From positions 418,435 through 482,434 of the forward strand of contig CAVVCK010000001.1 of the NCBI GenBank assembly GCA_963746775.1: DNA of 64,000 bases, written 5' to 3'. A program made the translations under genes and the position numbers. Each line of letters starts with the position of its first letter. Position 1 is the first letter of the stretch. The stretch is from an uncultured bacterium (lineage in GTDB: Bacteria; Patescibacteriota; JABMPQ01; CAVVCK01). This document shows, piece by piece, positions 4,616 through 58,550 of the stretch. The notes under the pieces are model-generated. The model saw only the letters and a list, made by a program, of their open reading frames with translations. It did not search any database and was not told the origin of the DNA.

Positions 4616-4993
4616 TTAATTTATAAAAGCTACCGCTTCAATTTCTACTCTGGCTTCTTTAGGTAAGGCTGCTACTTGCACAGTTGCTCTTGCTGGCGGT
4701 TCATTTTCAAAATATGATCCATAAATTTCATTCACTTTTTCGAAATCAACAAGGTCGGTTAAATAAATAGTAGTTTTAACTATTGATCGCATTTTTGTGT
4801 CCGTAGTCTCTAATATTGCTTTTATATTCTCCATTACTTGACGAGTTTGATTTTCTATAGATCCTTCCACCATATTTCCATCTGGTTTCAAAGGAATTTG
4901 ACCTGATACAAATACTAAATCTCCTCCTAAAACAGATTGTGAGTAAGGACCTATAGCTTGTGGCGCCTTATCAGTTGTAAATACTCTTTTCAT
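4616..4993 (-). CDS. ridA: RidA/YjgF family reactive-intermediate deaminase
   Basis: 125 aa. MKRVFTTDKAPQAIGPYSQSV... and the conserved C-terminal RATVQVAALPKEARVEIEAVA are typical of this family. Confidence 0.85.
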   Translation of the reverse strand: MKRVFTTDKAPQAIGPYSQSVLGGDLVFVSGQIPLKPDGNMVEGSIENQTRQVMENIKAILETTDTKMRSIVKTTIYLTDLVDFEKVNEIYGSYFENEPPARATVQVAALPKEARVEIEAVAFIN

Positions 4994-8034: not shown

Positions 8035-9087
8035 TTATTTCTTTAAATTCTCCGGCCTTAACTCTCTCACTTTTTTCCCAGCCTGCCACATTTCCGATTC
8101 TTTTATTTCTTTCAATTCTTCTTCCAATTTTTCCCTATATTTTGGATCGGAATTGGCTTCAAGAGTTATTCTAGTTTCTGTGCCATTTTTAACACTTTCG
8201 TATAAATCCTCAAAAACAGGTTCGACTGCCTCTCGAAATTTTCCCTTCCAATCAAGCGCTCCTCGCTGCGCCGTAGTTGAACAATTAGCATACATCCAAT
8301 CCATACCATTTTCAGCAATCAAAGGAATTAAACTTTGAGTTGCTTCTTCTACTGTTTCGTTAAATGCTTCTGATGGGCTATGACCATTTTTTCGAAGCAA
8401 ATTATATTGCGCTTCCATTATGCCTGCCATCGCCCCCATTAATACTCCTCTCTCACCAGTTAAATCAGACCACACTTCTTTCTCAAAGGTTGTAGAAAAT
8501 AAAAACCCAGAGCCGATAACAATACCCATCGCCTTTACTCTATCTTGCGCCCTACCAGTAGCATCTTGAAAAACAGCATAACTGGAATTAATACCACTAC
8601 CCTTTAAAAAATTTTGCCTAACTGACCTACCAGATCCTTTTGGTGCTACTAATATAACATCAATATCTTTAGGTGGAATAACCTTAGTTTGATCTTTATA
8701 AACGATTGAGAAACCATGAGAAAAACATAGAGCTTTACCGGCTGTTAAATATTTCTTAACATTTTCCCATTGATCCTTTTGTCCTGCATCAGATAATAAA
8801 TAACAAATAATTGATCCTCTCAAACATGCTTCTTCTATTTCAAATAACGTTTCTCCCTCAACCCAACCATCCTTGATAGCTTTATCCCAAGATTTTCCAC
8901 CTTTTCTCTGTCCTACAATTACATTTATTCCATTATCTTTCATATTATTGGCTTGTCCTGGACCTTGTACGCCATAGCCGATTACCGCTACAGTTTCATT
9001 TTTTAATACTTCTTTTGCTTTTTCCAAAGAAAATTCTTTCCTGGTAACAACTTCTTCTTCTGTACCACCGAAATTCATTTTTGACAT
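8035..9087 (-). CDS. ilvC: ketol-acid reductoisomerase (class I KARI)
   Basis: AVIGYGVQGPGQANNMKDNG Rossmann motif, SHGFSIVY, GERG. 350 aa. Confidence 0.8.
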   Translation of the reverse strand: MSKMNFGGTEEEVVTRKEFSLEKAKEVLKNETVAVIGYGVQGPGQANNMKDNGINVIVGQRKGGKSWDKAIKDGWVEGETLFEIEEACLRGSIICYLLSDAGQKDQWENVKKYLTAGKALCFSHGFSIVYKDQTKVIPPKDIDVILVAPKGSGRSVRQNFLKGSGINSSYAVFQDATGRAQDRVKAMGIVIGSGFLFSTTFEKEVWSDLTGERGVLMGAMAGIMEAQYNLLRKNGHSPSEAFNETVEEATQSLIPLIAENGMDWMYANCSTTAQRGALDWKGKFREAVEPVFEDLYESVKNGTETRITLEANSDPKYREKLEEELKEIKESEMWQAGKKVRELRPENLKK

Positions 9088-12792: not shown

Positions 12793-13272
12793 TTAGATAT
12801 TTTTTTTAACTGTAGTAAGTCCTGTTCTCACTAATTCCAAAATGTTTTTATTTTTAATTTTGGATATAATCTTATCGACATTAATATGAGTAGTGGTTAT
12901 TTCTAAAACAATTTCTTTTTTATTTTTTTCTAAAATATTCAAATTACCTCTTTTTTCTATATATTGAGCTAAAACCTTATTGAATCCCTTACTTAAAATT
13001 CTTAAAATTAGCAGCTCTCTTACGTTTACTTTTCTTAAATCAACCTGCTCTATCTTCACGACTTCAATTAATTTATTAATCTGGTTAATAACTTGATCCA
13101 TGCGAGTTCCCCTAACAACTAAAGTAATTAAAGTTCGATCTTTGATGTGAGTTTTCCCAGCTGTAATAGTTTCAATATTAAAATTGCGTCTTCTACAAAT
13201 TGAAGAAATTTTACCTAACACCCCCGGCCTATTTTCCACCCAAATATTAATTATTTCTTTTTTTTGTTTCAT
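12793..13272 (-). CDS. ilvN: acetolactate synthase small (regulatory) subunit
   Basis: ACT domain start IINIWVENRPGVLGKISSICRRRNFNIETI. 4-bp overlap with ilvB. Confidence 0.8.
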   Translation of the reverse strand: MKQKKEIINIWVENRPGVLGKISSICRRRNFNIETITAGKTHIKDRTLITLVVRGTRMDQVINQINKLIEVVKIEQVDLRKVNVRELLILRILSKGFNKVLAQYIEKRGNLNILEKNKKEIVLEITTTHINVDKIISKIKNKNILELVRTGLTTVKKNI

Positions 13273-14942
13273 ACCATTGTTTCATTTAATGAAGCACCAG
13301 GTGAAACCATAGGAAAAACGTTATCTTCACTTTTAATCACAAATTCATTTATAATCGGACCTTTTCTATTTCTTGATTTTCTAATATTTTCACAAGCTTC
13401 TTTCAAATTTTTTGATTTGTAAAATGGGATTTTATAACCTTGAGCAATTTTTCCAAAATCAGGATTCAGGAGCTTAGTTCCTGAATAATTTTTATTATAA
13501 AACATTTCTTGCCACTGGCGCACCATGCCTAAATAGCCATTATTGAAAACAGCTATTTTTACATCTAGATTTTCCTGCATTATGGTTCCCAACTCTTGGA
13601 TATTCATTTGAAATCCGCCATCACCCATTAAAGCCCATACTTCTGATCGAGGCTTAGCAAATTTAGCTCCGACTGAAGCCGGCAGACTATAGCCCATACA
13701 ACCAAGACCGCCAGAAGATAATAACTTTGGCTTGGAAAATTGATAATGTTGAGCAGTCCACATTTGATTTTGACCAACATCAGAAACAACTAAAGCTTCT
13801 CCTATGGTTTGTTTATAAATTTCATTAATAACATGCTTAGCCCGCATCTGACCTTTTTTATCTTCTCTGTCGTCAAAAGCTTTAATTGGATTTTTCTTTT
13901 GCCAATCCTTTATTTTCTTAAACCAATCAGCATTTTTATTTGATTTAACTTCCTTATTAATTTCTCTTAATGCTCGCTTGGCATCACATAAAATTGGTAC
14001 ATCAACTACAGTATTTTTACCAATTTCAGCAGCATCGATATCTATATGAATTACTTTGGCATCCTTGGCAAATTCTTCTAGTCTTCCGGTAATTCTGTCA
14101 TCAAATCGCAAGCCAATTCCCATAATAAGATCGGCGTTATGAACAGCAAAATTAGCATAAGCCATGCCATGCATGCCTAGCATACCAAAATTTAATTTAT
14201 GGCTGTCGGGAAAAGCTCCCATACCAAGTAAAGTAGTAATTACTGGAATATTAGCCTTTTCAGCTAAATTTTTTAATTTCTTTTCAGCCCCAGATATAAC
14301 TACTCCATGCCCAGTTAATATAATGGGGCGTTTTGATTGGTTAATTAATTTAGCAGTTTTATTAATTATGTCTTTAGTTATTACATGGCAAGGATTATAG
14401 CCTGGTAAATTTATATTTTTGGGATATAAAAATGATTTTACTTCTTCCTTAGAAACATCAACTGGAATATCAATTAAAACTGGTCCAGGCCTGCCCGAAT
14501 TCGCAATATAGAAAGCCTCTTTGATAACGCGGGGTAGGTCACGAACTGAGTCAACATAATAATTATGTTTAGTGATAGGCTGAGTAATACCAGTTATATC
14601 TACTTCTTGAAAAGCATCAGTACCACCAACAGAAGTTGCCACCTGGCCGGTAATAGCTACCATAGGCACAGAGTCCAAATAAGCATTAGCAATACCCGAT
14701 ACTAAATTAGTAGCTCCGGGACCAGAGGTAGATAGGCATACTCCAACTTTTTTTGATGCCCGAGCATATCCATCAGCCGCCATAGCAGCACCTTGCTCAT
14801 TTCTAACTAAAACATGCTTTATTTTCTTAGCATATTTAGGCAAAACATCATAAATAGGAATAACTACTCCGCCTGGATAGCCAAAAATAACCTCCACTCC
14901 TTCTTTGATTAATGATTTTAATAATATATCTGCGCCGATCAT
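13269..14942 (-). CDS. ilvB: acetolactate synthase large subunit (ThDP-dependent)
   Basis: MIGADILLKSLIKEGVEVIFGYPGG N-terminus. ThDP motif GLGCMGYSLPASVGA...GDGGFQMN. 557 aa. Confidence 0.85.
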   Translation of the reverse strand: MIGADILLKSLIKEGVEVIFGYPGGVVIPIYDVLPKYAKKIKHVLVRNEQGAAMAADGYARASKKVGVCLSTSGPGATNLVSGIANAYLDSVPMVAITGQVATSVGGTDAFQEVDITGITQPITKHNYYVDSVRDLPRVIKEAFYIANSGRPGPVLIDIPVDVSKEEVKSFLYPKNINLPGYNPCHVITKDIINKTAKLINQSKRPIILTGHGVVISGAEKKLKNLAEKANIPVITTLLGMGAFPDSHKLNFGMLGMHGMAYANFAVHNADLIMGIGLRFDDRITGRLEEFAKDAKVIHIDIDAAEIGKNTVVDVPILCDAKRALREINKEVKSNKNADWFKKIKDWQKKNPIKAFDDREDKKGQMRAKHVINEIYKQTIGEALVVSDVGQNQMWTAQHYQFSKPKLLSSGGLGCMGYSLPASVGAKFAKPRSEVWALMGDGGFQMNIQELGTIMQENLDVKIAVFNNGYLGMVRQWQEMFYNKNYSGTKLLNPDFGKIAQGYKIPFYKSKNLKEACENIRKSRNRKGPIINEFVIKSEDNVFPMVSPGASLNETMV

Positions 14943-15184: not shown

Positions 15185-16799
15185 TTATTTTGTATAATTC
15201 TTCCTAAATTTCTCCATAAAAGGAGTTGTCTCTCTCTTTGGCACTTTCATTTTCTTCAATCTTTTCTCAATTTCAGCCTGTGATAATTTAACATTCAATC
15301 TTCTTTTAGATATATTAATTTCAATCACATCACCATTTTTTATAATTCCAATTACTCCACTATTATATCCTTCAGGCTCAATGTGACCAATACAAGCTCC
15401 TCTAGTTCCACCGGAAAAACGGCCATCTGTAAGCAAAGCTACTTTGAGACCTGCACCAGAAATCACTGAGGTAGGTGTCAACATCTCCGGCATACCAGGA
15501 GCACCAGCCGGCCCCATAAAATTAACTACTACTACATCACCATTTTTAATATTTTTATTTTCTACCGCCTTCATTACTGCTTCTTCAGTATTGAATACCT
15601 TGGCTGGTCCGCTAAATTCTAGCATATCTTTCTCTACTGCTGTTTGTTTTATAACCGATGAATTGCAAATATTTCCTTTCAAAACGGCAATACCTCCTTC
15701 TTTGTAATAAGGATTATTCAATGGTCGAATTACATCATTATTTTTAATTTTACCCTTTTGAGCTATTTCTTTTATATTTTTTCCATTTACAGTCTCTGAT
15801 GATTTTAAATATTTTTTTAATCTATTTAAAACTGCTGGAATTCCTCCTGCCTTATCCAAATCTTCCATTACATGCTCACCTGCTGGTCTTATTTTACAAA
15901 TATTGAGCGTAGTTTTAGATATTTTATCAAATAATTCCAATGGCAAATCAATATTCATCTCATTTGCTATAGCAGGTAAATGTAGAGCGGTGTTAGTTGA
16001 CCCCCCAATAGCCATATCAACTCTGATTGCGTTTTCAAAAGCAGCTTTAGTCATAATCTTCCGGGGGTAAATATTTTTCTTTACTAACTGCACAATTTTC
16101 TTGCCGGTCTGATAAGCTTGTTTTTTCTTTTTAGGATCTAGGGCTAGAGTTGTGGCACAACCAGTCAGGGACATACCCAAAACTTCTGTCATACAAGCCA
16201 TAGAATTAGCAGTAAATAATCCTGCGCAAGAACCAGCCCCAGGACAAGCCCGGCATTCTATTTTATAGGCTTCTTTCAAATCCATTTTACCAGCCTTAAC
16301 TTTTCCAACAGCTTCAAAAGCGCCAGATACTAAATCTATGCCTTTCCCGTCAATGCTCCCTTCTTTCATTGCTCCGCCAGTAAGAATTATAGCTGGTAAA
16401 TTTAACCTGCCAGCTGCCATAAGCATACCCGGTGTAATTTTATCGCAATTAGTTACCCCCCACCCAACCGTCCAAAGAATGAGATAACATCATAATTTCT
16501 ATATTATCAGCAATATGATCACGAGAGGGCAGTGACAATCTCATTTCCACATGCATAGCGATACCGTCACACACACCCGGCACTCCCCATTCAAATGGCA
16601 CTCCTCCTCCATCTACAATCCCTCTTTTAACTTCCTTAGTTAATTCATTTAAATGAATATGGCCTGGAATTATATCGTTATAGGAATTGGCAATACCAAT
16701 AAAAGGTTTTTTGAAATCATTATCTCTTAAACCTGTGGCACGAAGTAAGGATCTATGAGGCATTGTTTCAATGCCCTTTTTTAGTTTTTCACTTCTCAT
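15185..16799 (-). CDS. ilvD: dihydroxy-acid dehydratase, split into two ORFs by a +1 frameshift in a C6 (G6 on the coding strand) homopolymer at 16455-16460
   Basis: ORF 16449-16799 encodes the IlvD N-terminus ([23 protein letters not shown]...GIAMHVEM...[10 protein letters not shown]). ORF 15185-16426 continues it ([13 protein letters not shown]...). Removing one G restores [21 protein letters not shown], the conserved [12 protein letters not shown] motif. Confidence 0.8.
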
Positions 16800-17699
16800 T
16801 TAATTAACAAAAGTTAGCCATTTATAATATTTTTTATTTTTTCCATTAATAATCTGACTAAATTCTTCTTTTAGTTTTCTAGTAACAATTCCTAAATCAT
16901 TTTTTAATTTCTTCCCATTAATTTGCCCCACTGGTGATACTTCAGCCGCCGTACCAGTTAGGAAACATTCATCCGCTTCCTGTATATTTTTTAATTTTAA
17001 TTTCTTTTCTAATATTTTATAACCTAAATCTCGAGCTAGTTGCATAATAGACTCTCTGGTAATACCAGCCAAAATAGTGCCCAAAGGCGGAGTATAAATT
17101 ATATTATTTTTAACAATAAAAATATTCTCAGCTGACCCTTCGGCTACATAACCTTTATAATCAAGCATAATGGCCTCAGTATAACCTGCCTTCGTTGCTT
17201 CCATTACAGCTAACATAGCATTAACATAGTGCCCTGTTATTTTAGCATCAGCGAAGGTAGACTCCGGATGAATACGCACAAACCGCGATACTTTTAACCG
17301 AGCTGATTCTTCGCCAAGATATGAACCCCAAGACCAACAAGCAATAGCCACATCAACAGGTAAGCCTGTAGGATTTACGCGCAAAGGACCGTGACCATAA
17401 TAAGCAATAGGTCTAATATAGCCGGATTTAATTTTGTTCTTTTTAATTAAATTAACAATTGCCTCTTTCAGTTCTTTCTTGTTATAAGGCATTTTCATAT
17501 GTATGCACTTAGCCGAATAAAGCCATCTATTGATATGCTTGTCTAATTGAAAAATTGCCTGACCCTGTTTAGTATTATAAAATCGTATACCTTCAAAAGC
17601 ACCGGTTCCATAGTGCATGGTATGATTTAAAACATGGACTTGAGCTTTGTTCCAATCAACCAGTTTGCCATTAAACCAAATTTTTGATGTTTTTTGCAT
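16800..17699 (-). CDS. ilvE: branched-chain amino acid aminotransferase (fold type IV)
   Basis: MQKTSKIWFNGKLVDWNKAQVHVLNHTMHYGTGAFEGIRFY. 299 aa. Confidence 0.85.
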   Translation of the reverse strand: MQKTSKIWFNGKLVDWNKAQVHVLNHTMHYGTGAFEGIRFYNTKQGQAIFQLDKHINRWLYSAKCIHMKMPYNKKELKEAIVNLIKKNKIKSGYIRPIAYYGHGPLRVNPTGLPVDVAIACWSWGSYLGEESARLKVSRFVRIHPESTFADAKITGHYVNAMLAVMEATKAGYTEAIMLDYKGYVAEGSAENIFIVKNNIIYTPPLGTILAGITRESIMQLARDLGYKILEKKLKLKNIQEADECFLTGTAAEVSPVGQINGKKLKNDLGIVTRKLKEEFSQIINGKNKKYYKWLTFVN

Positions 17700-17700
17700 T

Positions 17701-18288
17701 TTATTCCAAATTAGTATGCTTTCCTTTCATATACTTTTCCGAAATACCAAACTCGCTCATTAGAATGGGAATTATAGAATCAAAATAAATCATAGTGCTC
17801 AATTCAAATAATGTCCCCATGGGCATAATCTTTTTATTCTTTTCAACTAATTGTCTAGCCAAATAATTTTCTGTATCTGATTCTTCTACTTTAGTTTTTA
17901 ATTTAATTTTCACATCAGAAATCTTTCCTATAGAGGAATTTTCATTACTAGTTATAGTTATTATTTTTGATTTTTGGCTTTTGGCCGCTTGAGCTACATG
18001 TAAAACAGAGCTAGTTTCACCAGAACCACTGACAACTAATAAAACATCATTTCGTGAAATAGCCGGCGTAATAGTATCACCCACAAAATATACTTCCTTA
18101 CCTAAATGAACTAAGCGCATAGCAAATGATTTAGCTACCAATCCAGATCGACCTGCTCCAAAAACAAAAACTTTTTGTGAATTTTCAATTATTTCTACAG
18201 CAGCTTTAGTATCTCTCTTAGAAGATTTTGATATAATTGTCTCAATGTTCTTGGTAATTTTCTTGGCATTTTTTATAAAATCCGGCAT
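17701..18288 (-). CDS. hxlB: 6-phospho-3-hexuloisomerase (SIS domain)
   Basis: VFVFGAGRSGLVAKSFAMRLVHLG and SGSGETSS SIS motifs. 195 aa. Adjacent to the HPS gene. Confidence 0.7.
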   Translation of the reverse strand: MPDFIKNAKKITKNIETIISKSSKRDTKAAVEIIENSQKVFVFGAGRSGLVAKSFAMRLVHLGKEVYFVGDTITPAISRNDVLLVVSGSGETSSVLHVAQAAKSQKSKIITITSNENSSIGKISDVKIKLKTKVEESDTENYLARQLVEKNKKIMPMGTLFELSTMIYFDSIIPILMSEFGISEKYMKGKHTNLE

Positions 18289-18306
18289 TTGTTATGAATT
18301 TATAAT

Positions 18307-18963
18307 TTATAATGTAAAATTTTGAATTGATTCTTTAATACTTTTTGCAGCCTCGACTGGATCATCTACCCCTGTAATCCCTCCACCAACTATCACTATA
18401 TCTATATTTTTAATTCCTTCTAACTGGCTTATATTTTCTTGTTTAATTCCTCCGGCAACCACCAATTTCCCACCTAAACCTGATATAGCCTCTGATATTT
18501 CTCTGGTTTTAGAAAAAGTTGTTTTACCCTGTCTTTGCTCACTTATGCCACAATGCACTCCTAATAATTTCACTCCCATCTTAATTAATTCTTTAGACCT
18601 TTCAATATAGTCCCTAACACCAATTAAATCAACTACCGCAATTAAACCATTCTTATTAGCAAATTTTAAGCCATCCTCAATATTCTCTATAGGGGATGCC
18701 CCAAGCATAGTTACATAAGTCGCTCCACATTCCATAGCTACTTGAAATTCAATGTCAGCTACATCAGCTGCTTTTAAATCGGCTACTAAGGGCTTTTTTG
18801 TTTTTTCACTAAACGCTTTTAAAACATCTCTCATCCCACAAGCCTTAAGCAAGGGTGTACCAGCTTCGATAAGATCTACTTCAGATTCTACTTTTTCTAT
18901 CATCTTCAGCGGATCTTCTAAGCTTACATAGTCGAGTGCTAATTGTAATTTTGGTTTTTCCAT
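18307..18963 (-). CDS. hxlA: 3-hexulose-6-phosphate synthase (OMP decarboxylase fold)
   Basis: LQLALDYVSLEDPLKMIEKV...DLIEAGTPL. 218 aa. Confidence 0.7.
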   Translation of the reverse strand: MEKPKLQLALDYVSLEDPLKMIEKVESEVDLIEAGTPLLKACGMRDVLKAFSEKTKKPLVADLKAADVADIEFQVAMECGATYVTMLGASPIENIEDGLKFANKNGLIAVVDLIGVRDYIERSKELIKMGVKLLGVHCGISEQRQGKTTFSKTREISEAISGLGGKLVVAGGIKQENISQLEGIKNIDIVIVGGGITGVDDPVEAAKSIKESIQNFTL

Positions 18964-19403
18964 TATTTATAATTATTTATTTTATTAACTCTATCCTTGT
19001 GTCTTCCACCTTCAAATTCACTTCCCAAAAATCTATCAACTATTTTAGTCGCTAAATCATAATCAATAATTCTTGCACCTAAACATAAAACATTAGCATT
19101 ATTATGTTTTCTTGTCATTTCTGCTTCTTTTTCTATATTACAATGCGCTGCCCTAATGCCTTTTACTTTATTAGCCGCTATACACATTCCAATCCCTGTC
19201 CCACAAATTAAAATTCCTAAACTATTTTCTTCACTTGCTACTTTTTTCCCTAATTTAAAAGCGTAATCAGGATAATCAACTGAATCAATGTTATTTGTCC
19301 CTAAATCTTCAATTTCAATATTTTTATCTTTTAAATAATTTTTTACTTTTTCTTTTAGTTCAAATCCGGCATGATCTGAAGCTATATATATTTTTTTAGA
19401 CAT
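18963..19403 (-). CDS. rpiB: ribose-5-phosphate isomerase B
   Basis: MSKKIYIASDHAGFELKEKV...CGTGIGMCIAANK. 146 aa. Confidence 0.85.
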   Translation of the reverse strand: MSKKIYIASDHAGFELKEKVKNYLKDKNIEIEDLGTNNIDSVDYPDYAFKLGKKVASEENSLGILICGTGIGMCIAANKVKGIRAAHCNIEKEAEMTRKHNNANVLCLGARIIDYDLATKIVDRFLGSEFEGGRHKDRVNKINNYK

Positions 19404-19774: not shown

Positions 19775-22348
19775 ATGGAAAATACCTCTGGTCTCTCTCA
19801 AAAAAGAGCTGAAATGCTCCTAAAAAATAATGGTTATAATGAATTACCTTCACAAAAAAATAAAAATAGTTTTTTAATTTTACTAAAGGTAATTTCCGAA
19901 CCGATGCTGCTTCTTTTAATTATAAGTGGTCTTATTTACTTTTTTTTGGGTGAAATACAAGATTCTTTAATGCTTCTAAGTTTCGTCTTAGTGGTTATAG
20001 GCATTACTTTTTATCAAGAAAGAAAAACAGAAAAAACCTTAATTGCCTTAAAAGAACTATCCAGCCCTAGAGTTTTAGTAATTAGAGATAATGAGCAGAA
20101 GATAGTTCCAGGGCGTGAAATAGTAAAAAATGACATTATTATTCTTCACGAAGGCAATAGAGTACCAGCCGATGCCGTTATTTTAGATTGTGAAAATTTA
20201 GCCATCGATGAATCCCTACTTACCGGAGAATCCATTCCTGTTAGAAAAACAAAATGGGATATGAAACTGAAAATACAAAGACCAGGAGGTAATGATTTAC
20301 CATTTATTTATTCTGGATCAATGGTAGTAAGCGGACAAGGAATAGCTAGAATTATTGCTACTGGTTCTAACACAGAGATAGGAAAAATTGGCAGAAGTAT
20401 TGAAGCAATCAAAGAAGAAGATACTCTCTTACACAAAGAAACAGCTAAAATAGTTCGTTTAATAGTTATTTTTGGCGCCCTACTTTGTTTATTAGTACTC
20501 TTAATTTATATTTTTATAAAAGACAATATTGTTCAGGGTTTATTAGCAAGCTTAACACTAGGCATGGCTATTCTTCCGGAAGAGTTTCCTGTCGTTTTGA
20601 TTATTTTCTTAACATTAGGAGCTTGGCGCATTTCAAAAAACAAAGTACTTACCAGACATCCGGCAGCCATAGAAACATTAGGAGCTACTACCATACTTTG
20701 TACTGATAAAACCGGTACTCTAACACTGAATAAAATGAGATTAATTAGTTTATATTCTCAAAACTCATTTTGTGGAATTAAAAATTATTCTACAGCTTAT
20801 AATTTGCCTGAAAAATTTCATAGCCTTTTAGAATATGGCATTTTAGCTAGTCAAAAAGATCCCTTTGACCCAATTGAAAAAGAACTAAATAAAACAGGTA
20901 ATTTATTTCTTAAAAATACTAAACATTTACATCAAAGTTGGTCTCTGAAGAAAGAATATCCTTTATCTAAAAACTTATTAGCAATATCACGTGTTTGGCA
21001 ATCTCCTGACCAGAAAAATTTCATCATTGCTTCCAAAGGAGCACCAGAAGCAATTTTTAATCTTTGCCATTTTAACTCTGCTCAAAAAAAAGAAGTGCTT
21101 CAAGAAGTAATAAAAATGTCTAATCAAGGTTTACGAATTTTAGGAGTGGCTAGAGCAAAATTTTCTCAAGATAGTCTTCCTAAAAATCAGCATGATTTCT
21201 CTTTTCAATTTATAGGTTTACTGGGTTTTATAGATCCAGCTCGTACCACTGCCCCCCAGGCAATAAAAGAAGCCTACAATGCTGGTATACGCGTTATTAT
21301 GATTACGGGTGATTATCCAGGAACTGCTCAATTCATAGCCAAAAAAATAGGCATTAATAATCCAGAACTATATATTACCGGCGAAGAATTAGAAAAAATG
21401 AATCATCTTGAATTAAGAAAAAGAATTAAGAAAACTAATATTTTTGCCCGAGTCATCCCTGAACAAAAGTTATTGATTGTTAACGCCCTAAAAGCAAATA
21501 ATGAAATAGTAACCATGACCGGCGATGGTGTTAATGATGCTCCAGCCCTAAAATCTGCTCATGTCGGCATTGCTATGGGAGAGCGTGGAACAGATGTTGC
21601 CCGCGAAGCATCCTCGCTAGTTCTTTTAAATGATGATTTTTCTTCAATTATAACCGCCGTAAGGTTAGGAAGAAGAATCTTTGATAATATTAAAAGAGCT
21701 ATGGGCTATATCTTAGCTGTTCACATACCTATCGCTGGCATTTCAATTCTTCCTCTTTTTTTTGACCTACCGATTATTTTGCTGCCAGCTCATATTGCTT
21801 TTTTAGAATTAATTATAGATCCAGCCTGCTCGGTTGTTTTTGAATCAGCTAAAGAAGATAAACAAATAATGAATAGGCCGCCCCGCAATCTTCACCATTC
21901 AATATTTAATTTTAAAACAGTTTCTATTAATATTTTACAAGGATTGGGTATATTACTGGCAATTTTTCTCTTGTTTCTCTTTACAATAAAATCAGGTATG
22001 GGAGAATACGAAGCTCGTTCTTTTGCTTTTACATCCTTAGTTTTGGCTAATATAGCACTTATTATAACTAATCTTTCTTGGGAAAAAAATATTTACCAAA
22101 TACTACGATCAGCTAATAAAACTTTATTTATAATTATTGGTAGTGCACTTATCTGTCTGCTTGGAATATTATACATACCCTTTTTAAATAATATTTTCCA
22201 TTTGGTTCCTCTTCATTTAAATGATCTTGCTCTTGTTGGTTTGATTGTTTTTGTTAGTTTAGCTTGGTTCGAAATATTTAAATACTACAAATATAAATTA
22301 AATCTTAATAATTATTTATCAAATAAAATTAAGAACTTAAACATTTAA
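19775..22348 (+). CDS. calcium/cation-translocating P-type ATPase (P2-type)
   Basis: ILCTDKTGTLTLNKM, TGDYPGTA, GDGVNDAPALKSAHVGIAMG. N-terminal GLSQKRAEMLLKNNGYNEL. 857 aa. Confidence 0.85.
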   Translation: MENTSGLSQKRAEMLLKNNGYNELPSQKNKNSFLILLKVISEPMLLLLIISGLIYFFLGEIQDSLMLLSFVLVVIGITFYQERKTEKTLIALKELSSPRVLVIRDNEQKIVPGREIVKNDIIILHEGNRVPADAVILDCENLAIDESLLTGESIPVRKTKWDMKLKIQRPGGNDLPFIYSGSMVVSGQGIARIIATGSNTEIGKIGRSIEAIKEEDTLLHKETAKIVRLIVIFGALLCLLVLLIYIFIKDNIVQGLLASLTLGMAILPEEFPVVLIIFLTLGAWRISKNKVLTRHPAAIETLGATTILCTDKTGTLTLNKMRLISLYSQNSFCGIKNYSTAYNLPEKFHSLLEYGILASQKDPFDPIEKELNKTGNLFLKNTKHLHQSWSLKKEYPLSKNLLAISRVWQSPDQKNFIIASKGAPEAIFNLCHFNSAQKKEVLQEVIKMSNQGLRILGVARAKFSQDSLPKNQHDFSFQFIGLLGFIDPARTTAPQAIKEAYNAGIRVIMITGDYPGTAQFIAKKIGINNPELYITGEELEKMNHLELRKRIKKTNIFARVIPEQKLLIVNALKANNEIVTMTGDGVNDAPALKSAHVGIAMGERGTDVAREASSLVLLNDDFSSIITAVRLGRRIFDNIKRAMGYILAVHIPIAGISILPLFFDLPIILLPAHIAFLELIIDPACSVVFESAKEDKQIMNRPPRNLHHSIFNFKTVSINILQGLGILLAIFLLFLFTIKSGMGEYEARSFAFTSLVLANIALIITNLSWEKNIYQILRSANKTLFIIIGSALICLLGILYIPFLNNIFHLVPLHLNDLALVGLIVFVSLAWFEIFKYYKYKLNLNNYLSNKIKNLNI

Positions 22349-22383: not shown

Positions 22384-24234
22384 CTATTTTCCATTTCTCT
22401 TATTATAAAGTATATTGTATCCCCTCTCAAAAGCCTCAATCGAGGCTACTATTACATCTGGAGAAGTAGCGGTCGCAATAACTCTGTTGTCCTTATCATC
22501 TTTCAAACTCATGGAAACTTCCACCGTCGCATCAGTTCCTTTCTGATCAATTTTTACATCAAAATCTGTTAACCAATATTTCATTAACTTTTCTTTTTTA
22601 ATAACTGCCCGAACTGCTCTCATTATAGCATCAACCGGGCCTACACCTTTAGCTTTGTCCGTACTTACACATTTATTTTTTATACAAACTTTAACTTCTG
22701 CTACTGCCTTATCATTTTTAGAAGTAGATACTTCAAAATCTTCTATCTTAATTAATTTCTTTGAATCCGGTACAGTTTTTAGAACATCTTCTATAATATG
22801 TTGCAAATCTGACCCTACCATTTCTTTTCCTTTCTTGAAAAAACTCTCTATTTCATTATATGTGGCACTTAAATACTCTTTATTTAAATCCAGGCCAAAA
22901 TCTTTATTTATTACTCTCTTTAATTGTCCCAAACTAGGTTTCTTAGACCAAAGTTCTTTTACTTTATCTTTTTCTACCGTTCCTTTAATATTATATAATT
23001 TCATTTTCAAATAGCTATCTACTTCAGACATCTTTGGTTCAATCGAGGGTGGAGAAGGCAAAATTTTCAACATAGTTAAAGGATCTTTTAATCCATTGCC
23101 AGTACAAACACAAACAACCACGTCATCTTTTTTAATTTTCTTTTGTTTCACCATTTTATGTAGTGCAGCTAGAGGCAACGCTGCCGAAGGTTCAACAAAA
23201 ATTGATTCTTTCTCCGCTAATTCTTTTTCAGCATTTAGCGTATCTTCATCTGTTACTTCAATTGCCTCACCACGAGTTCCATAAATAGCCTTTAATAACT
23301 TTAAGCCATCCAGGGGCATACTAACCGCTACTGCCGATGACACGGTACTAGGTTTTTCTATAGCTTTCATTGTTTTAGATTTTCTCTTAAATGCCTCAAC
23401 TACTACATTGGCACCCTCAGGTTGCACACCAACAACTTTGGGCAACTTATCAATAAATCCTAATTCATACATTTCTCTAAATCCTTTATAGATAGCTGAC
23501 AAATTTGTACCACAACCAACCGGAGCTATCACCCAATCAGGAGACTTCCAGTAAAGCTGTTCGGCTATTTCATAGCCTTGCGATTTCTGTCCTTCTCCGC
23601 GAAAAACATAATCTCCAGCTAAATAAAATCCATATTTATGAGCAATTTCTTCAGTTAATTTAGCACACTCAGTATAAGTTCCCCTCACCTGAATTACTCT
23701 GGCACCATAAGCTAGAGTTTGAGCTAGTTTTCCCAAGGGAGTTCCTTCAGGTACTACAATATAAGCGGGAATTCCTGCTTGAGCGGCATAAGCAGCCACA
23801 GATGCTGCCATATTCCCAGTTGAGGCGGTAATAATAGCTTCTGCCCCCATTTCCATAGCCTTAGTCATTTCTACCATCGTTCCTCTATCTTTAAAGCCCC
23901 CTGTAGGATTAGAAGTTTCATCTTTAAAATATAATTTATTTAAACCAAGTTTCTTACCTATTTGTTTGCTTCTTTTTAAGGGCGTTCCTCCTTCATTAAG
24001 GCTGACTAATTTATTTAAATCCATAATAGGATAAAAACTCATATATTTAGCCGATGAAAGTGGTGTATTTTTTAGTGAATAAAAATTAAGCCTGCTCTTT
24101 ATATATTCATAATCATATTCAACATCCAAGGGTCCGCCACACTTCAGACAATGAGAAGTTGTTTCCTCTTCTTTAAAATATTTTCCACAGTTTGCACACT
24201 TTAATTTATAAAATTTTTCTTGTTTGGTTGTCAT
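22384..24234 (-). CDS. thrC: threonine synthase with N-terminal Zn-ribbon and a C-terminal LeuA-dimerisation/regulatory-like domain (unusual fusion)
   Basis: PLP-lysine motif NPTGGFKDRGTMV and Cys4 N-terminus (CANCG...CLKCGG). The C-terminal ~150 aa (KAKGVGPVDAIMRAVRAV...TDFDVKI...GTDATVEVSMSL...SPDVIVASIEAFERGYN) resemble the LeuA_dimer allosteric domain. Confidence 0.7.
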   Translation of the reverse strand: MTTKQEKFYKLKCANCGKYFKEEETTSHCLKCGGPLDVEYDYEYIKSRLNFYSLKNTPLSSAKYMSFYPIMDLNKLVSLNEGGTPLKRSKQIGKKLGLNKLYFKDETSNPTGGFKDRGTMVEMTKAMEMGAEAIITASTGNMAASVAAYAAQAGIPAYIVVPEGTPLGKLAQTLAYGARVIQVRGTYTECAKLTEEIAHKYGFYLAGDYVFRGEGQKSQGYEIAEQLYWKSPDWVIAPVGCGTNLSAIYKGFREMYELGFIDKLPKVVGVQPEGANVVVEAFKRKSKTMKAIEKPSTVSSAVAVSMPLDGLKLLKAIYGTRGEAIEVTDEDTLNAEKELAEKESIFVEPSAALPLAALHKMVKQKKIKKDDVVVCVCTGNGLKDPLTMLKILPSPPSIEPKMSEVDSYLKMKLYNIKGTVEKDKVKELWSKKPSLGQLKRVINKDFGLDLNKEYLSATYNEIESFFKKGKEMVGSDLQHIIEDVLKTVPDSKKLIKIEDFEVSTSKNDKAVAEVKVCIKNKCVSTDKAKGVGPVDAIMRAVRAVIKKEKLMKYWLTDFDVKIDQKGTDATVEVSMSLKDDKDNRVIATATSPDVIVASIEAFERGYNILYNKRNGK

Positions 24235-24599
24235 AATTTTTTTAGTAGTTGAAATTGGTTATTTGGAAGATAGATATTAGTAATAGAAATTAGATAACAG
24301 AAAATGGTAAACAAATTTCCAATCTCTATTTTCTATTACCATTTTCTAATTTTTAAACAGCAATTTACTTGTATATTTATTAATATTATTCATATTAATT
24401 AGCATATTGGCATTGTGTTATTAGTATATAAAAATGCCACCTATTACGGTGGCTTATACTAAACAAAAAATTCCAGGTAAGCCACCTAGGCAGCAATAAT
24501 AATTAAATTTATAATCCAAAATATTCTTTTCAACTTTTTTCTAATATTTCATTATCTTCTTCTATACCTTACACATTATTTTATCCATCGTCAAGAAAT

Positions 24600-26289: not shown

Positions 26290-27537
26290 ATGAAAATAAA
26301 AATCTCTTTATTCCTACTTCTAAACTTACTAGCCATATTTACTTTAATAAATTTGACTTCAGCTTCAACCATTGATCAATTACAGCCTGCCGCTTATACA
26401 ATCAATGAAGATTTAACAGTAAATGGAACTGGTATCTTTAATTCCATTAAAATAGGTAAACAAAACGAAGGAGGTGTAACTTTCTTTAATGGTTCTATTG
26501 TTAACGCTACAACTACTGACGGAATCGATAATCCTATAGCTTTTGCCGATAATATAAGGATAGATGGCATTTTATTCAGAACAGAAGAAGGTGGTAATAA
26601 CCCTTTAAAAATAGGTGATACTCTGAAACCTAATAGTGATAATAGTTATGATATAGGACAAACAGACTCTCAGTGGAGAAATGCTTACTTCACCGGCACT
26701 GTTAGTGTTGGCAATTTACAAGGATCAAAAATAATTCATCCAGACAATCTAGCTACTTCTAATTCTGCTTCCTCAGGACAAGTTTTGTCATATAATTCCG
26801 AGGGTAATCTAGAATGGATTCCAGTCGCAGGAAATAGCGGTGATATAACTGCAGTTAGCGCCGGTTCTGGTTTATCGGGCGGTGGAACATCAGGTGATGT
26901 ATCTTTAAGCGTCTCTAGCACTGGCATAACTAATACTATGCTAGCAAACAATGCGGTAACTTCAGCTAAAATACAGGATGGCACCATAGCAGGAGCCGAT
27001 CTTACTTCTAGTTATCAATCAGGTTCTGCCTATGATAGTCGATTCGTAACCCAATCTTCTCCTTCCTGGAGTTCTAGAACTGGTTATGTAAGTGTGGCTC
27101 CCGGCGCCTTCACCCCTAAAAAGAACTATTATGATACTGATCCAGGAGGAAGTACTGATTATAATTATACACATCTAGGATATAAGTTAACTGGTACAAA
27201 TGTTGCCGCTGAAAAATATTATGCCCAAGTTGATCTCCCTCATGGATCTACTATAGCAAGATTAGATTTTTATTACGATGATGACGATGCTTCTAAACAA
27301 GCTAGGTTAGACTTATTAGCACATAGCAGAGTAGCTGCTGCACCTAGTTATTTAGCTACTGTACAATCACCAACAGGAACTGATAGTGATGGTAGCAGTT
27401 ATGACGATACTATTTTAGATGTTTTGAAAACTATTGATAATAGTAGTTATAGTTATTATTTAGAATTAGGATTATCCTCTACAAACCTAAGTTATTATGG
27501 TGCTACTATAACTTATACTTATACAGAACCTTATTAA
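26290..27537 (+). CDS. secreted fibre/adhesin-like protein, paralog 1 of 3
   Basis: Signal peptide. Conserved N-module (DLTVNGT...GGVTFFNG...RIDG...W..AYF.G.V.VGNL.G). Tail-fibre-like ITNTMLANNAVTSAKIQDGTIAGADL repeats. C-terminal ITYTYTEPY. Confidence 0.6.
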   Translation: MKIKISLFLLLNLLAIFTLINLTSASTIDQLQPAAYTINEDLTVNGTGIFNSIKIGKQNEGGVTFFNGSIVNATTTDGIDNPIAFADNIRIDGILFRTEEGGNNPLKIGDTLKPNSDNSYDIGQTDSQWRNAYFTGTVSVGNLQGSKIIHPDNLATSNSASSGQVLSYNSEGNLEWIPVAGNSGDITAVSAGSGLSGGGTSGDVSLSVSSTGITNTMLANNAVTSAKIQDGTIAGADLTSSYQSGSAYDSRFVTQSSPSWSSRTGYVSVAPGAFTPKKNYYDTDPGGSTDYNYTHLGYKLTGTNVAAEKYYAQVDLPHGSTIARLDFYYDDDDASKQARLDLLAHSRVAAAPSYLATVQSPTGTDSDGSSYDDTILDVLKTIDNSSYSYYLELGLSSTNLSYYGATITYTYTEPY

Positions 27538-27616
27538 TAAAATGATTTTTAAAATTATAAAATTTTTGTTATAATAAATAATAATTTAAAAAGACTCTGC
27601 CAGATAAAAAAACAAA

Positions 27617-28690
27617 ATGAAAAAACTATTGCCTTTCCTAACAATTTTAGGCATCTTCGCTTTGGTGGATCTAGCCTCTGCTTCCCCCGCTACCGATCTT
27701 CAACCAGCTCAAACTATTACCTACAACGAGGATCTAACAGTTAATGGTACTGCCAGGTTTGATTCTGCTTACATTGGTAAAACTACCGGCGAAGGCGGAG
27801 TAACTTTTTTCAATGGTACCATGATTAATAATTCAGCAGGTAGTGTTCCTCTGACTATGGGTGATGACTTAAGAGTAGATGGTATGATTTGGAGAGGGCC
27901 TTCTAAAGGAACAGCTGATGATATGCCTTTAAAGATAGCCGATACGCTAATGCCTGCTCTAAATAATGTTAACGATATAGGGACGGAAGATAATCAGTGG
28001 AAAGATGCCTATTTTGCTGGTGAGGTAACTGTAGGTAATTTGTTAGGAACAGGAGTAATTCATACTAATAACCTAGCTACTACTAATGCTGCTTCAACTA
28101 ATCAAGTACTATCCTATAACGGAGAGGCTTTAGAATGGGTAAATGGAGGTGATATTACCGGAATTACTGCTGGAACAGGATTATCTGGCGGAGGAACAAG
28201 TGGAGAGGTGACGTTGAGGGTGGATGATGATTATGTTGTAACCCAGTCTTCACCTGAATGGGATGCTAGAACAGGAGAAGTAAATGTTGCACCAGCCGAT
28301 TGCACAGGAGGAAGTAATTCATCTAATTTTACTCTAGATGCCACACGTTTCTATGCAGGATCTGTAGCATTTTTCTACTGCCCAGTACATTTACCTAACG
28401 GGGCTAATATTACTAGTTTTACCGCTAATGTGGAAGACACACACGCATCAAATTTGACAATAACATTACAAAGAAATCAATTGACAGATGGTTCTCCTGT
28501 TACTCAAAATCTCGCTTCTGTAAATTCAAGTTCTAGCTCTGGAAAAGTATTGTTAACAGATTCTACTATTGATAATGCCACAGTTGATAATGATTATACT
28601 TATACGATTTGGTTAAACTTCGGTGCTGCTTCTTCATTATTATCCTTTGATGGAGCAAAAATCACTTATACCTATACAGAACCTTATTAA
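27617..28690 (+). CDS. secreted fibre/adhesin-like protein, paralog 2 of 3
   Basis: Same N-module and C-terminal KITYTYTEPY as paralog 1, with a divergent middle region. The signal-peptide coding sequence is near-identical to that of paralog 3. Confidence 0.6.
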   Translation: MKKLLPFLTILGIFALVDLASASPATDLQPAQTITYNEDLTVNGTARFDSAYIGKTTGEGGVTFFNGTMINNSAGSVPLTMGDDLRVDGMIWRGPSKGTADDMPLKIADTLMPALNNVNDIGTEDNQWKDAYFAGEVTVGNLLGTGVIHTNNLATTNAASTNQVLSYNGEALEWVNGGDITGITAGTGLSGGGTSGEVTLRVDDDYVVTQSSPEWDARTGEVNVAPADCTGGSNSSNFTLDATRFYAGSVAFFYCPVHLPNGANITSFTANVEDTHASNLTITLQRNQLTDGSPVTQNLASVNSSSSSGKVLLTDSTIDNATVDNDYTYTIWLNFGAASSLLSFDGAKITYTYTEPY

Positions 28691-28720
28691 TAAAAATATA
28701 AAATAATATAAAAAAACAAA

Positions 28721-29602
28721 ATGAAAAAACTATTGCCTTTCCTAACAATTTTGGGCATCTTTGTCTTAGCTGGTTTTGCTTCTGCCTCTACCGCTAATGA
28801 ATTACAACCTGCCTCATCACTTGTTGTTGATAAAGAACTACGAGTGCTTGGTACCGCTAGAGCCTATTCAATTCGTATCGGTGCTCAGGGATATGGTGGT
28901 GTAACTTTTTTTAATGGAACAATTATCAACGAAACCACGGATACAGATACAGGAACAGAAATGCCAGTAACTTTTGGTGATGATGTCAGAATAGATGGAC
29001 GTATTTGGAGAGGAGAAAATGCCGGACCAGGATTAAATGATGATCGTGAGCTTATTGTTAATGATGATATGGAGATAACTGGTGATTTAACTGTTAACAA
29101 TTTAGTTGGTACAGGAGTAGTAAATAGTAATAATATATTAGATGGGACAATAACTACTGCTGATTTGGCTGATAGTTCAATTACTAGTGCTAAACTTACT
29201 GATGGAACTATAATGGGTAGTGATATTTCAAGTTCTGCTGATTTAAGTGTAGCTACTGGTACTTTTTCGGGAGATATAACTGCCCACGGAGATATTATTC
29301 AGGATTTAGCTGACCATGGAGCAGCGAAAGCGTTAACTGTTATACATGAGGATGGAACATGCCCAACTCAATGGACATATAATGATAGTACTATAACTTG
29401 TGCAAGCATTGGTGCTGGAAATTATACTGCAACATTCACTTTTAATGTTTATAATAGATATAACCAGTTAACTGGATTACAATCTGATCCGCATTTCCTT
29501 AATTATAATGTAAACCTAGCTACACCAAAAGTTCTCTATATACGTAGCTACGATATTGCAGGAAATCCAGAAAATTCTAATGTTGTAATTTCTGTTTTCT
29601 AA
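28721..29602 (+). CDS. secreted fibre/adhesin-like protein, paralog 3 of 3 (shorter, divergent C-terminus)
   Basis: MKKLLPFLTILGIFVLAGFASAS signal peptide. Conserved GGVTFFNGTIINE...RIDGRIWRG module. ILDGTITTADLADSSITSAKLTDGTIMGSDI repeats. Confidence 0.6.
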   Translation: MKKLLPFLTILGIFVLAGFASASTANELQPASSLVVDKELRVLGTARAYSIRIGAQGYGGVTFFNGTIINETTDTDTGTEMPVTFGDDVRIDGRIWRGENAGPGLNDDRELIVNDDMEITGDLTVNNLVGTGVVNSNNILDGTITTADLADSSITSAKLTDGTIMGSDISSSADLSVATGTFSGDITAHGDIIQDLADHGAAKALTVIHEDGTCPTQWTYNDSTITCASIGAGNYTATFTFNVYNRYNQLTGLQSDPHFLNYNVNLATPKVLYIRSYDIAGNPENSNVVISVF

Positions 29603-53144: not shown

Positions 53145-53240
53145 ATTTATCCAATATAATTATTCTAAAAATCTTTATAATATTATCACATAAAAACAAA
53201 AAAACCAACCCTCAGGCTGGCTTATTTTAAAGCTCATTAT

Positions 53241-53355
53241 GTTGGCGACGACCTACTTTCTCCTACCATAATAGTAGGGTAGCATCGGCGCTGGTAAGTT
53301 TTACTTCTGAGTTCGAGATGAGATCAGGTAGTTCCTTACCGCAAGAGCCACCAAC
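53241..53355 (-). rRNA. rrf: 5S ribosomal RNA
   Basis: Reverse complement GTTGGTGGCTCTTGCGGTAAGGAACTACCTGATCTCATCTCGAACTCAGAAGTAAAAC...CAGCGCCGATGCTACCC matches the 5S consensus. Flanked by the processing stem GCTCATTATGTTGG / CCAACATAATGAGC. Confidence 0.85.
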
Positions 53356-53479
53356 ATAATGAGCTCTAATTATCTTTAACAATTATAAAACGCTAGCCAA
53401 TTAGTACGTTGAAATGTTGAAAATGTTGGAATCAAAATGATTTCAACGGTTTCAACGATTACAACGAATTTTAATACTA

Positions 53480-56305
<2,826 letters not shown>

Positions 56306-58549: not shown

Positions 58550-58550
58550 A

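Follow-up and report, generated by a model that had tools for sequence, protein, structure and literature searches.

IlvA (EC 4.3.1.19), the biosynthetic threonine deaminase that supplies 2-oxobutanoate to isoleucine synthesis, joins a fold-type II pyridoxal 5'-phosphate (PLP) catalytic domain to a C-terminal regulatory domain that binds amino acids, is subject to isoleucine feedback, has RidA as a partner, and belongs with ilv operons under Ile/Val(/Leu) leader-peptide attenuation. The established role of RidA is hydrolysis of the enamines and imines that PLP dehydratases, IlvA among them, release (PMC3565831). On an alternative route to 2-oxobutanoate, isoleucine feedback on citramalate synthase (CimA) is mediated by a LeuA-type C-terminal domain; in CimA, as in 2-isopropylmalate synthase (LeuA), the catalytic partner of this domain is a Claisen condensing domain of the DRE-TIM (HMGL-like) kind. 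Here we describe a gene in which this regulatory module sits on a PLP enzyme instead. It lies in a 64,000-nucleotide stretch of DNA from an uncultured bacterium (contig CAVVCK010000001.1, positions 418,435 to 482,434; hereafter, the window) and encodes a 616-residue fusion protein that shares the domain order of IlvA, but has a catalytic domain derived from threonine synthase (ThrC, EC 4.2.3.1), an additional N-terminal zinc ribbon, and a LeuA_dimer fold in place of the ACT-like Thr_dehydrat_C domain, which is absent. The window belongs to a genome of the Patescibacteria; it has a GC content of ~30% and carries bacterial 23S and 5S rRNA, and its closest homologues are labelled Patescibacteria or Parcubacteria group. 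The fusion gene and its parts are as follows.

22384-24234, minus strand: fusion gene, 616 residues, with zinc ribbon, ThrC-like PLP domain, helical linker and LeuA-type regulatory domain
24115-24210, minus strand: N-terminal Cys4 zinc ribbon, residues 9-40, with C13, C16, C29 and C32
23098-24006, minus strand: fold-type II PLP catalytic domain of the 'GDY' ThrC clade (see below), residues 77-379, with PLP lysine K115
22813-23052, minus strand: linker, residues 395-474, consisting of a connector modelled with low confidence and then helices that align to linker subdomain II of LeuA
22408-22812, minus strand: LeuA/CimA-type allosteric (LeuA_dimer, PF08502) domain, residues 475-609
within the LeuA_dimer domain: ligand loop G530-V-G532-P-V534-D535-A
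within the LeuA_dimer domain: pocket residues L555, F558, I562, T567, V571, P592 and V594

Pfam searches of the whole protein matched residues 77-379 to PALP (E=2.5e-78) and residues 475-609 to LeuA_dimer (E=6e-24), the latter with 84.8 bits where the gathering cutoff is 24.9; the C-terminus searched alone scored 87.4 bits with LeuA_dimer. The Pfam results contained no HMGL-like (DRE-TIM) domain in the protein, the partner of LeuA_dimer being PALP. Among NCBIfam models, the threonine synthase model NF006050 matched residues 7-389 with 319.7 bits, a narrow margin over its cutoff of 303, and the threonine synthase model TIGR00260 gave 251.5 bits against a cutoff of 167.1. The four ribbon cysteines (C13, C16, C29, and C32) and K115, which lies in an FKDRG motif, were unchanged in all 44 homologues aligned, and K115 was invariant in 120 of 120 family members. 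Zinc-ribbon Pfam models matched the N-terminus weakly; the full-length structural model has beta-hairpins at residues 9-13 and 35-40. A preliminary description of this DNA had called the protein a ThrC-type enzyme with an N-terminal Cys4 ribbon and a PLP lysine, which the PALP and NF006050 matches and the invariant residues bear out, and every peptide string it quoted is present in the translation. It was also right that there is an extra C-terminal part, but the extension past the ThrC core measures ~220 residues (395-616), not the ~170 that it gave.

The C-terminal extension is predicted to have the fold of its described counterparts. An AlphaFold model of residues 395-616 (pLDDT, predicted local distance difference test, 81.6) contains two beta-beta-beta(-beta)-alpha units, which is the duplicated fold expected of LeuA_dimer. 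The top 12 Foldseek matches of this model in the PDB consisted only of the regulatory domains of LiCMS, the CimA of Leptospira interrogans (3F6G/3F6H; template modeling (TM) score 0.80-0.87, root-mean-square deviation 2.1-2.9 Å), and Mycobacterium tuberculosis LeuA (1SR9/3FIG; E about 1e-8), and the next, unrelated match followed at E=2.5e-4. When the module was compared with the PDB by sequence, a family profile was required: the single C-terminal sequence gave a marginal match only (E=0.04), and the profile detected 3F6G/3F6H at E=1.1e-11. The resemblance to the LeuA/CimA regulatory domain that had been proposed from the sequence therefore holds in the Pfam score, in the profile search, and in the superposition of the predicted structure. 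In the full-length model (pLDDT 83.2), both domains are confident and are joined by a connector at ~385-430 of low confidence (pLDDT 54-66), with linker helices at residues 402-419, 435-446, 452-466, and 474-485. Residues 444-613 align to positions 344-505 of the NCBIfam LeuA model (start about 339-344). Therefore, the transplanted unit comprises linker subdomain II together with the regulatory domain, and the homology with CimA and LeuA, in both sequence and fold, includes this linker subdomain.

The effector pocket of the module was compared with that of LiCMS, for which the isoleucine-binding residues reported by Zhang et al. 2009 are taken to be Y430, D431, L451, Y454, I458, T464, V468, P493, and Q495. 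All nine fit the residue types of the 3F6G chain with a numbering offset of 389, and they map to V534, D535, L555, F558, I562, T567, V571, P592, and V594 of the fusion protein. The fusion family keeps six of the LiCMS residues (D431, L451, Y454 as either Y or F, I458, V468, and P493); Y430 is replaced by V, giving a LeuA-like GPVDA loop, and Q495 by V or I. Among 120 family members, G530, G532, and L555 are present in 120, D535, V571, and P592 in 119, and I562 in 118. The variable positions are 558 (Y or F), 534 (V, or F), and 594 (V or I), and the equivalent of T464 is T in the window protein and T or V across the family. The near-invariance of the loop and pocket residues indicates that the ligand site is under strong purifying selection. 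The pocket itself is predicted to be hydrophobic and of a size suited to an amino acid, and the replacements of Y430 and Q495 mean that its effector could be isoleucine, leucine, or valine. Pathway logic and the isoleucine-dominated leader peptide described below make isoleucine probably the favored ligand, with leucine or valine as possible alternatives.

Pocket conservation of this degree (118 to 120 of 120) bears on one explanation of the fusion, namely that it acts in catabolism as a serine/threonine dehydratase supplying pyruvate or 2-oxobutanoate to fermentation and that its LeuA-type domain is merely an effector-free module for dimerization or stability. Bacteria of the Candidate Phyla Radiation (CPR), the Patescibacteria, are fermentative and have reduced biosynthesis, which would suit such an enzyme, but the nearly invariant ligand loop and pocket speak against it, and we regard this explanation as very improbable.

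The fusion is widely conserved across the CPR. We found more than 120 homologues, and the best 120 span 52-90% identity; 119 of these are full-length, and every one of the 119 carries both PF00291 and PF08502. An exhaustive search yielded ~15 fusion clusters at 50% identity, with unfused zinc-ribbon ThrC-like proteins of ~400 residues next in rank, and a word-indexed protein search with the C-terminal 182 residues returned only 9 fragments and zero new architectures. The fusion is present in 55 species-representative genomes, which supply the 55 loci analyzed below, from Parcubacteria/Paceibacterota, Peregrinibacteria/Peribacteria, Gracilibacteria, Gottesmanbacteria, and Wirthbacteria; a few of the metagenome-assembled genomes (MAGs) among the 55 carry doubtful labels. 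A description of a ThrC-LeuA_dimer fusion was not found in the searchable literature, and within that literature the view of the preliminary description that the arrangement is undescribed holds. The one paper found to mention CPR together with ThrC is about a different, archaeal fusion of cysH and thrC.

In every source, the database name of the fusion is 'threonine synthase'. This name, together with the NF006050 and TIGR00260 scores above their cutoffs, favors a reading in which the protein is a genuine threonine synthase, converting O-phosphohomoserine to threonine under isoleucine, leucine, or valine feedback through its LeuA-type domain, with an IlvA encoded elsewhere performing the deamination. 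We consider this rather unlikely. In the window, the following genes lie downstream of the fusion gene.

16800-17699, minus strand: ilvE, branched-chain aminotransferase (NF005146, 385.9 bits against a cutoff of 279)
15185-16799, minus strand: ilvD, dihydroxy-acid dehydratase (Pfam ILVD_EDD in L001, an independent assembly of the same strain)
13269-14942, minus strand: ilvB, acetohydroxy-acid synthase large subunit (Pfam match of the ortholog in the relative L002; tblastn synteny)
12793-13272, minus strand: ilvN, acetohydroxy-acid synthase small subunit (Pfam match of the L002 ortholog; tblastn synteny)
8035-9087, minus strand: ilvC, ketol-acid reductoisomerase (KARI_N and KARI_C)
4616-4993, minus strand: RidA, enamine/imine deaminase (Ribonuc_L-PSP, 143 bits; TIGR00004, 170 bits against a cutoff of 106)

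The same genes surround the fusion in its relatives. In L002, at 88% identity, the fusion comes first and is followed by co-directional rpiB, hxlA, hxlB, ilvE, ilvD, ilvB, ilvN, ilvC, and RidA, and in relatives that are ~55% identical it stands directly before ilvE-ilvB-ilvN or ilvE-ilvD-ilvC-ilvB-ilvN. Across the 55 loci, ilv genes are co-directional with the fusion in 45, and the fusion usually stands at the head of an ilvE/D/B/N/C operon; the gene directly downstream is ilvE in 23 loci, RidA in 12, and ilvD in 4. RidA occurs in 27 loci and directly adjoins the fusion in 15 of them. Ten loci have no nearby ilv genes, and RidA is still adjacent in 7 of these, which fits a catabolic dehydratase; many of the ilv-less loci, however, are short or truncated contigs, and the majority of loci are ilv operons behind an Ile/Val attenuator.

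Class I threonine synthases belong to a hom/thrB context, and the ilv/RidA context of the fusion differs from it. No ilvA, thrB, hom, asd, or aspartate kinase gene was found in the ±10 kb flanks of the 55 loci or in the 64-kb window, and the other PALP genes near the fusion were TrpB-like only. A genuine threonine synthase could be located in ilv operons because threonine is the precursor of isoleucine; nevertheless, its hom and thrB partners would be missing from all these surroundings, and the adjacency of RidA would be unexplained if threonine were the released product. Moreover, isoleucine alone shutting off threonine synthesis would also deprive protein synthesis of threonine.

Several features of the neighborhood in the window are particular to it or to its close relatives. 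The genes rpiB, hxlA, and hxlB, of the ribulose-monophosphate pathway, lie between the fusion and ilvE (17701-19403, minus strand), an arrangement seen only in the lineage of the window, L002, and L003. Two P-type cation ATPase genes on the plus strand (10248-12776 and 19775-22348) break up the co-directional ilv cluster and are both missing from these positions in L002; because these opposite-strand genes interrupt the cluster, the fusion gene in the window is a monocistronic unit with its own isoleucine leader. The N-terminal third of ilvD (15185-16799, minus strand) is out of frame, and the window and L001 differ by one 1-nucleotide indel in 12,482 aligned bases, located in ilvD, which probably reflects either an error of assembly or a pseudogene at the strain level. 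An open reading frame (ORF) of 448 residues right after RidA (3265-4611, minus strand) has no Pfam match, matches the uncharacterized TIGR04552 weakly, and is kept at the equivalent position in L002 and L003. In another locus (L057, 10688-13702, plus strand), a 1005-residue ORF is apparently composed of a LeuA-like (HMGL) part and a LeuC-like aconitase-family large subunit, being either a real fusion or a read-through due to an assembly error.

Upstream of the fusion gene, a 476-bp region contains a leader peptide ORF and a transcription attenuator, with these elements.

24486-24533, minus strand: leader peptide ORF starting with TTG, LKRIFWIINLIIIAA followed by a stop codon, 6 Ile in 15 codons
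24428-24487, minus strand: three-segment attenuator, in which pairing 1:2 is the antiterminator and pairing 2:3 the terminator
24477-24487, minus strand: attenuator segment 1, AGGTGGCTTAC, overlapping the leader stop codon
24448-24457, minus strand: attenuator segment 2, ATAAGCCACC, pairing with segment 1 and also forming the 5' arm of the terminator
24436-24441, minus strand: attenuator segment 3, GGTGGC, followed by a U-run at 24428-24435

The terminator hairpin, GCCACC...GGTGGC with its U-run, occupies 24428-24453. In the minimum-energy structure computed by RNAfold, segments 1 and 2 are paired (z=-2.4), and the 1:2 duplex of -14.8 kcal/mol was equalled in 0 of 200 shuffles. A ribosome that reaches the leader stop codon would mask segment 1, and the terminator would form; a ribosome stalled at the isoleucine codons would leave segment 1 free, and the antiterminator would form.

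At least 24 further loci (33-54% GC) have an equivalent Ile/Val-rich leader ahead of the fusion or of the first ilv gene, with examples such as MRPTITNIIIIIIIIATQVVG, VNFIRNSIIISVIIIAA, MTEKLPKILDIVVVVSLIIPT, and MKRLTQIILVVIIIIL. In a strict RNAfold-based scan of 57 loci, a leader together with a terminator was found in 25, directly upstream of the fusion in 20 and upstream of the first ilv gene in 4 where the fusion is internal to the operon. The composition of 26 leaders is 32% Ile, 12% Val, 11.5% Leu, and 4% Thr. This lack of enrichment in threonine codons again speaks against a genuine threonine synthase. In all of 24 loci, the best complement of the terminator 5' arm starts between -6 and +12 nucleotides from the leader stop codon, and in 18 of the 24 at most 5 of 200 shuffles gave a 1:2 pairing as good. 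The segment pairs differ by lineage (GGTGGCTT/AAGCCACC, GTGGCAGTT/AACTGCCAC, CCAGAGAG/CTCTCTGG, and GGCGGAT/ATCCGCC); since the sequences vary between lineages while the pairing persists, the changes are compensatory.

The attenuator gave no match in Rfam at the gathering threshold, only noise (E of at least 1.2), and a T-box or riboswitch in the leader was rejected after this comparison. Its closest described likenesses are the enterobacterial ilvGMEDA, ilvBN, and thr attenuators, which likewise consist of a short ORF rich in regulatory codons whose stop codon lies beside an antiterminator segment competing with an intrinsic terminator. It differs from them in having three segments rather than the classic four, in its occurrence in Patescibacteria, in belonging to no Rfam family, and in its isoleucine-dominated codons.

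The catalytic domain has an active-site signature that is distinct from that of canonical threonine synthases. It is 39% identical to the solved ThrCs of Aquifex aeolicus (2ZSJ), Bacillus subtilis (6CGQ), and M. tuberculosis (2D1F), and with these and the Thermus thermophilus enzyme (1UIM) it shares the class I fold, the FKDRG motif, the STGN loop, and the arginine equivalent to R160; it departs from class I ThrC in its zinc ribbon and 220-residue regulatory extension. K115, S138, N141, and R212 are kept (canonical K61, S84, N87, and R160). In place of canonical T88, N154, S155, and N157, the fusion has M142, G207, D208, and Y209, all invariant, and position 241, which is N188 in canonical ThrC, is C or V across the family; the change of S155 to D comes with a one-residue deletion. 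The residues that we take to be the phosphate contacts of ThrC are T88, N154, S155, R160, and N188 (T. thermophilus numbering, checked against the alignments). Four of these five are replaced in the fusion (M142, G207, D208, and C/V241), one of them by an invariant Asp, and only the Arg (R212) is kept. The identity to solved ThrCs and the retained lysine, STGN loop, and R212 are what a genuine threonine synthase would have, but the replacement of most of its presumed phosphate contacts argues against O-phosphohomoserine as the main substrate.

The fixed differences T88M, N154G, S155D, N157Y, and N188C/V mark a monophyletic clade, here called GDY, of 36 representatives with the solved ThrCs outside (neighbor-joining tree without bootstrap). 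In the same tree, the fusions form a sub-clade within GDY that is interleaved with the unfused proteins P0143, P0144, P0146, P0147, P0151, and P0157. The motifs STGNM and LAGDY were considered as fusion-specific and rejected, being common to unfused relatives and marking the wider clade. With IlvA, the catalytic domain scores far lower than the ~320 bits obtained on the ThrC model: 89 bits against a cutoff of 411 for TIGR01124 (IlvA) and 127 against 379 for TIGR01127. Cysteate synthase was rejected as an identity (TIGR03844, 94 bits against a cutoff of 325). Among the ThrC-like representatives, ten of ~490-520 residues (P0164, P0165, P0206, P0215, P0219, P0241, P0243, P0244, P0255, and P0272) have the PLP lysine replaced (F[I/L/V]DRG) and a C-terminal extension of their own; these may be pseudo-enzymes or catalyze other chemistry.

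Unfused members of the clade are also found next to RidA. For P0144, RidA is the next gene downstream; for P0143, an overlapping RidA gene precedes; and P0146 and P0157 belong to a triad of an HMGL-like gene without regulatory domain, the ThrC-like gene, and RidA. The Rid proteins beside unfused relatives are of the RidA subfamily (TIGR00004, 138-186 bits against a cutoff of 106). Overlapping genes of this triad were seen at L071 (1526-4375) and on a contig of JGI 3300071358, where the HMGL-like synthase has ~406-410 residues and the ThrC-like protein is of the GDY type; the adjacency of LeuA/CimA-type and ThrC-like genes in the triad may relate to the origin of the fusion. P0147, which is unfused and falls in the same sub-clade as the fusions, takes the position of ilvA in its operon: its gene is flanked by ilvC and ilvD, and further along come thrA, a homoserine-kinase-like gene, and a canonical ThrC of class II (Thr_synth_N, PALP, and THR4_C; TIGR00260, 282 bits). 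The operon (L067, 1-11609) comes from a MAG annotated as Deltaproteobacteria and reads ilvB, ilvN, ilvC, GDY ThrC-like, ilvD, thrA, kinase-like, canonical ThrC; its kinase-like gene encodes 210 residues that match NF040667, the Desulfovibrio-type homoserine kinase, in part, and the operon is led by a Val/Ile/Leu/Thr-rich leader peptide, MLVNSLRTLVTVLVVIITSMPRCGPRL, with a strong terminator. A GDY protein that shares its operon with a canonical ThrC is a further point against threonine synthesis as the role of the fusion. The gene contexts of the Thermococcus protein, P0205, and P0152 were uninformative.

Together, membership in ilv operons and control by an Ile/Val attenuator suggest that the fusion is the entry enzyme of the isoleucine branch, in the place of IlvA. 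We propose that it is an analogue of IlvA, forming 2-oxobutanoate under feedback from a branched-chain amino acid that is probably isoleucine, and we put the probability of this reading at roughly one half. Starting from threonine or, possibly, from O-phosphohomoserine, the enzyme would yield 2-oxobutanoate in its enamine/imine form, RidA would hydrolyze this intermediate, and IlvB/N, IlvC, IlvD, and IlvE would take 2-oxobutanoate on to isoleucine. The two C-terminal domains of a dimer would form an interface pocket for a branched-chain amino acid, most probably isoleucine, whose binding would inhibit the PLP domain. Reaction and isoleucine feedback would thus be like those of IlvA, and isoleucine would act twice on the entry step, by transcription attenuation and by allostery.

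The preliminary description had proposed leucine/isoleucine feedback on threonine synthesis. Its link to branched-chain amino acids stands, given the ilv genes in 45 of 55 loci, the Ile/Val attenuator, and the near-invariant pocket, while threonine synthesis as the regulated step has become doubtful. The absence of nearby hom, thrB, and ilvA, the frequent RidA neighbor, the four replaced phosphate contacts, and the operon that P0147 shares with a canonical ThrC make the wiring more likely an ordinary one: isoleucine feedback on 2-oxobutanoate supply.

A number of points weigh against the proposal that the fusion is an IlvA analogue. The function of the family is read here from sequence and gene context, and the absence of ilvA, hom, and thrB applies to the ±10 kb flanks rather than to whole genomes. 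The catalytic domain passes the cutoffs of ThrC models and falls far below those of IlvA models. The assignment of phosphate contacts draws on T. thermophilus ThrC structures and alignment numbering, and the invariant R212 could still bind phosphate. In about 9 loci there are leuA/cimA-like and leuB/C genes that might provide a citramalate route to 2-oxobutanoate. Finally, the identity of the effector is derived from pathway logic and pocket similarity, and the GPVDA loop is closer to LeuA than to LiCMS, with LeuA models outscoring CimA models on the fusion C-terminus.

Related enzymes provide precedents for a ThrC-type protein that forms 2-oxobutanoate. In a non-canonical ThrC of Microcystis aeruginosa, the deamination of threonine to alpha-ketobutyrate follows sigmoidal kinetics and is subject to inhibition by isoleucine; this enzyme has an extra N-terminal region (residues 9-57) and still works as a ThrC, its Km for O-phosphohomoserine being low (PMC12172450). 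The ThrCs of T. thermophilus and B. subtilis also deaminate threonine when its concentration is high (PMC12172450). THNSL2, a ThrC homologue of the mouse, acts as a phospho-lyase and gives 2-oxobutanoate from O-phosphohomoserine (Donini 2006, cited in PMC2748086). The Microcystis enzyme and THNSL2 differ from the fusion in having no LeuA-type regulatory domain, and neither is reported to belong to an ilv operon. No representative resembling the C-terminus of the Microcystis enzyme was found among the ThrC-like sequences compared, and both proteins may lie outside the GDY clade.

The retained ThrC activity of the Microcystis enzyme, whose extra N-terminal region is probably common to both proteins, is in keeping with a genuine threonine synthase. 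It is also a precedent for a bifunctional fusion that makes threonine from O-phosphohomoserine and deaminates it at higher threonine concentrations, the regulatory domain balancing both activities according to isoleucine level. Such an enzyme would accommodate both the ThrC-model scores and the ilv/RidA context, and the non-canonical Microcystis ThrC, with its additional T9-T57 segment, combines dual activity with sigmoidal, isoleucine-inhibited deamination (PMC12172450). Nevertheless, that enzyme may not be a member of the GDY clade, the altered phosphate site and the lack of nearby hom and thrB oppose O-phosphohomoserine as the main substrate, and a canonical ThrC is encoded separately beside P0147; bifunctionality therefore strikes us as improbable.

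Extended from the fusion to its whole clade, the proposal of an IlvA analogue becomes that GDY 'threonine synthases', fused or not, descend from ThrC but form 2-oxobutanoate, standing in for IlvA in Patescibacteria and in some other lineages, and that the LeuA/CimA module, moved from a TIM-barrel synthase onto the unrelated PLP fold, keeps branched-chain feedback. This wider claim is put forward tentatively, at slightly under even odds.

Outside the fusion locus, the window contains further genes of note. A fusion of the prephenate dehydrogenase N-terminal domain with prephenate dehydratase lies beside an archaeal-type aspartate aminotransferase-like gene (520-1836 and 1955-3112, both minus strand); these genes represent added amino-acid biosynthesis capacity, which is unusual for a CPR genome. 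At 26290-29602 (plus strand), three secreted proteins of 415, 357, and 293 residues are encoded in tandem; they are paralogs with similar signal peptides and N-termini, and two of them end in ...ITYTYTEPY. In the regions 53240-56299 and 56623-59105 (both minus strand), 23S and 5S rRNA genes are present, and the expected place of the 16S gene holds protein-coding genes instead, for deoxyhypusine synthase, a member of the agmatinase family, and a pyruvoyl-dependent arginine decarboxylase. The rRNA operon therefore appears unlinked.

If the fusion is indeed an isoleucine-regulated IlvA analogue, hundreds of CPR 'threonine synthase' annotations would become the entry enzyme of isoleucine synthesis, and reconstructions of Patescibacteria would gain a regulated Ile/Val pathway, not necessarily a threonine pathway. 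It would be a non-orthologous displacement of IlvA, which pathway-gap tools such as GapMind would score as a missing step. The fusion would also be a clear natural transfer of an allosteric domain between unrelated catalytic folds, useful for understanding modular allostery and for engineering biosensors and feedback control. The Ile-rich attenuator, which has no Rfam family, would imply coupled transcription-translation control in these small-genome bacteria. Taken as a whole, the locus would represent a complete, convergently rebuilt isoleucine control system in organisms that are usually deemed incapable of making amino acids.

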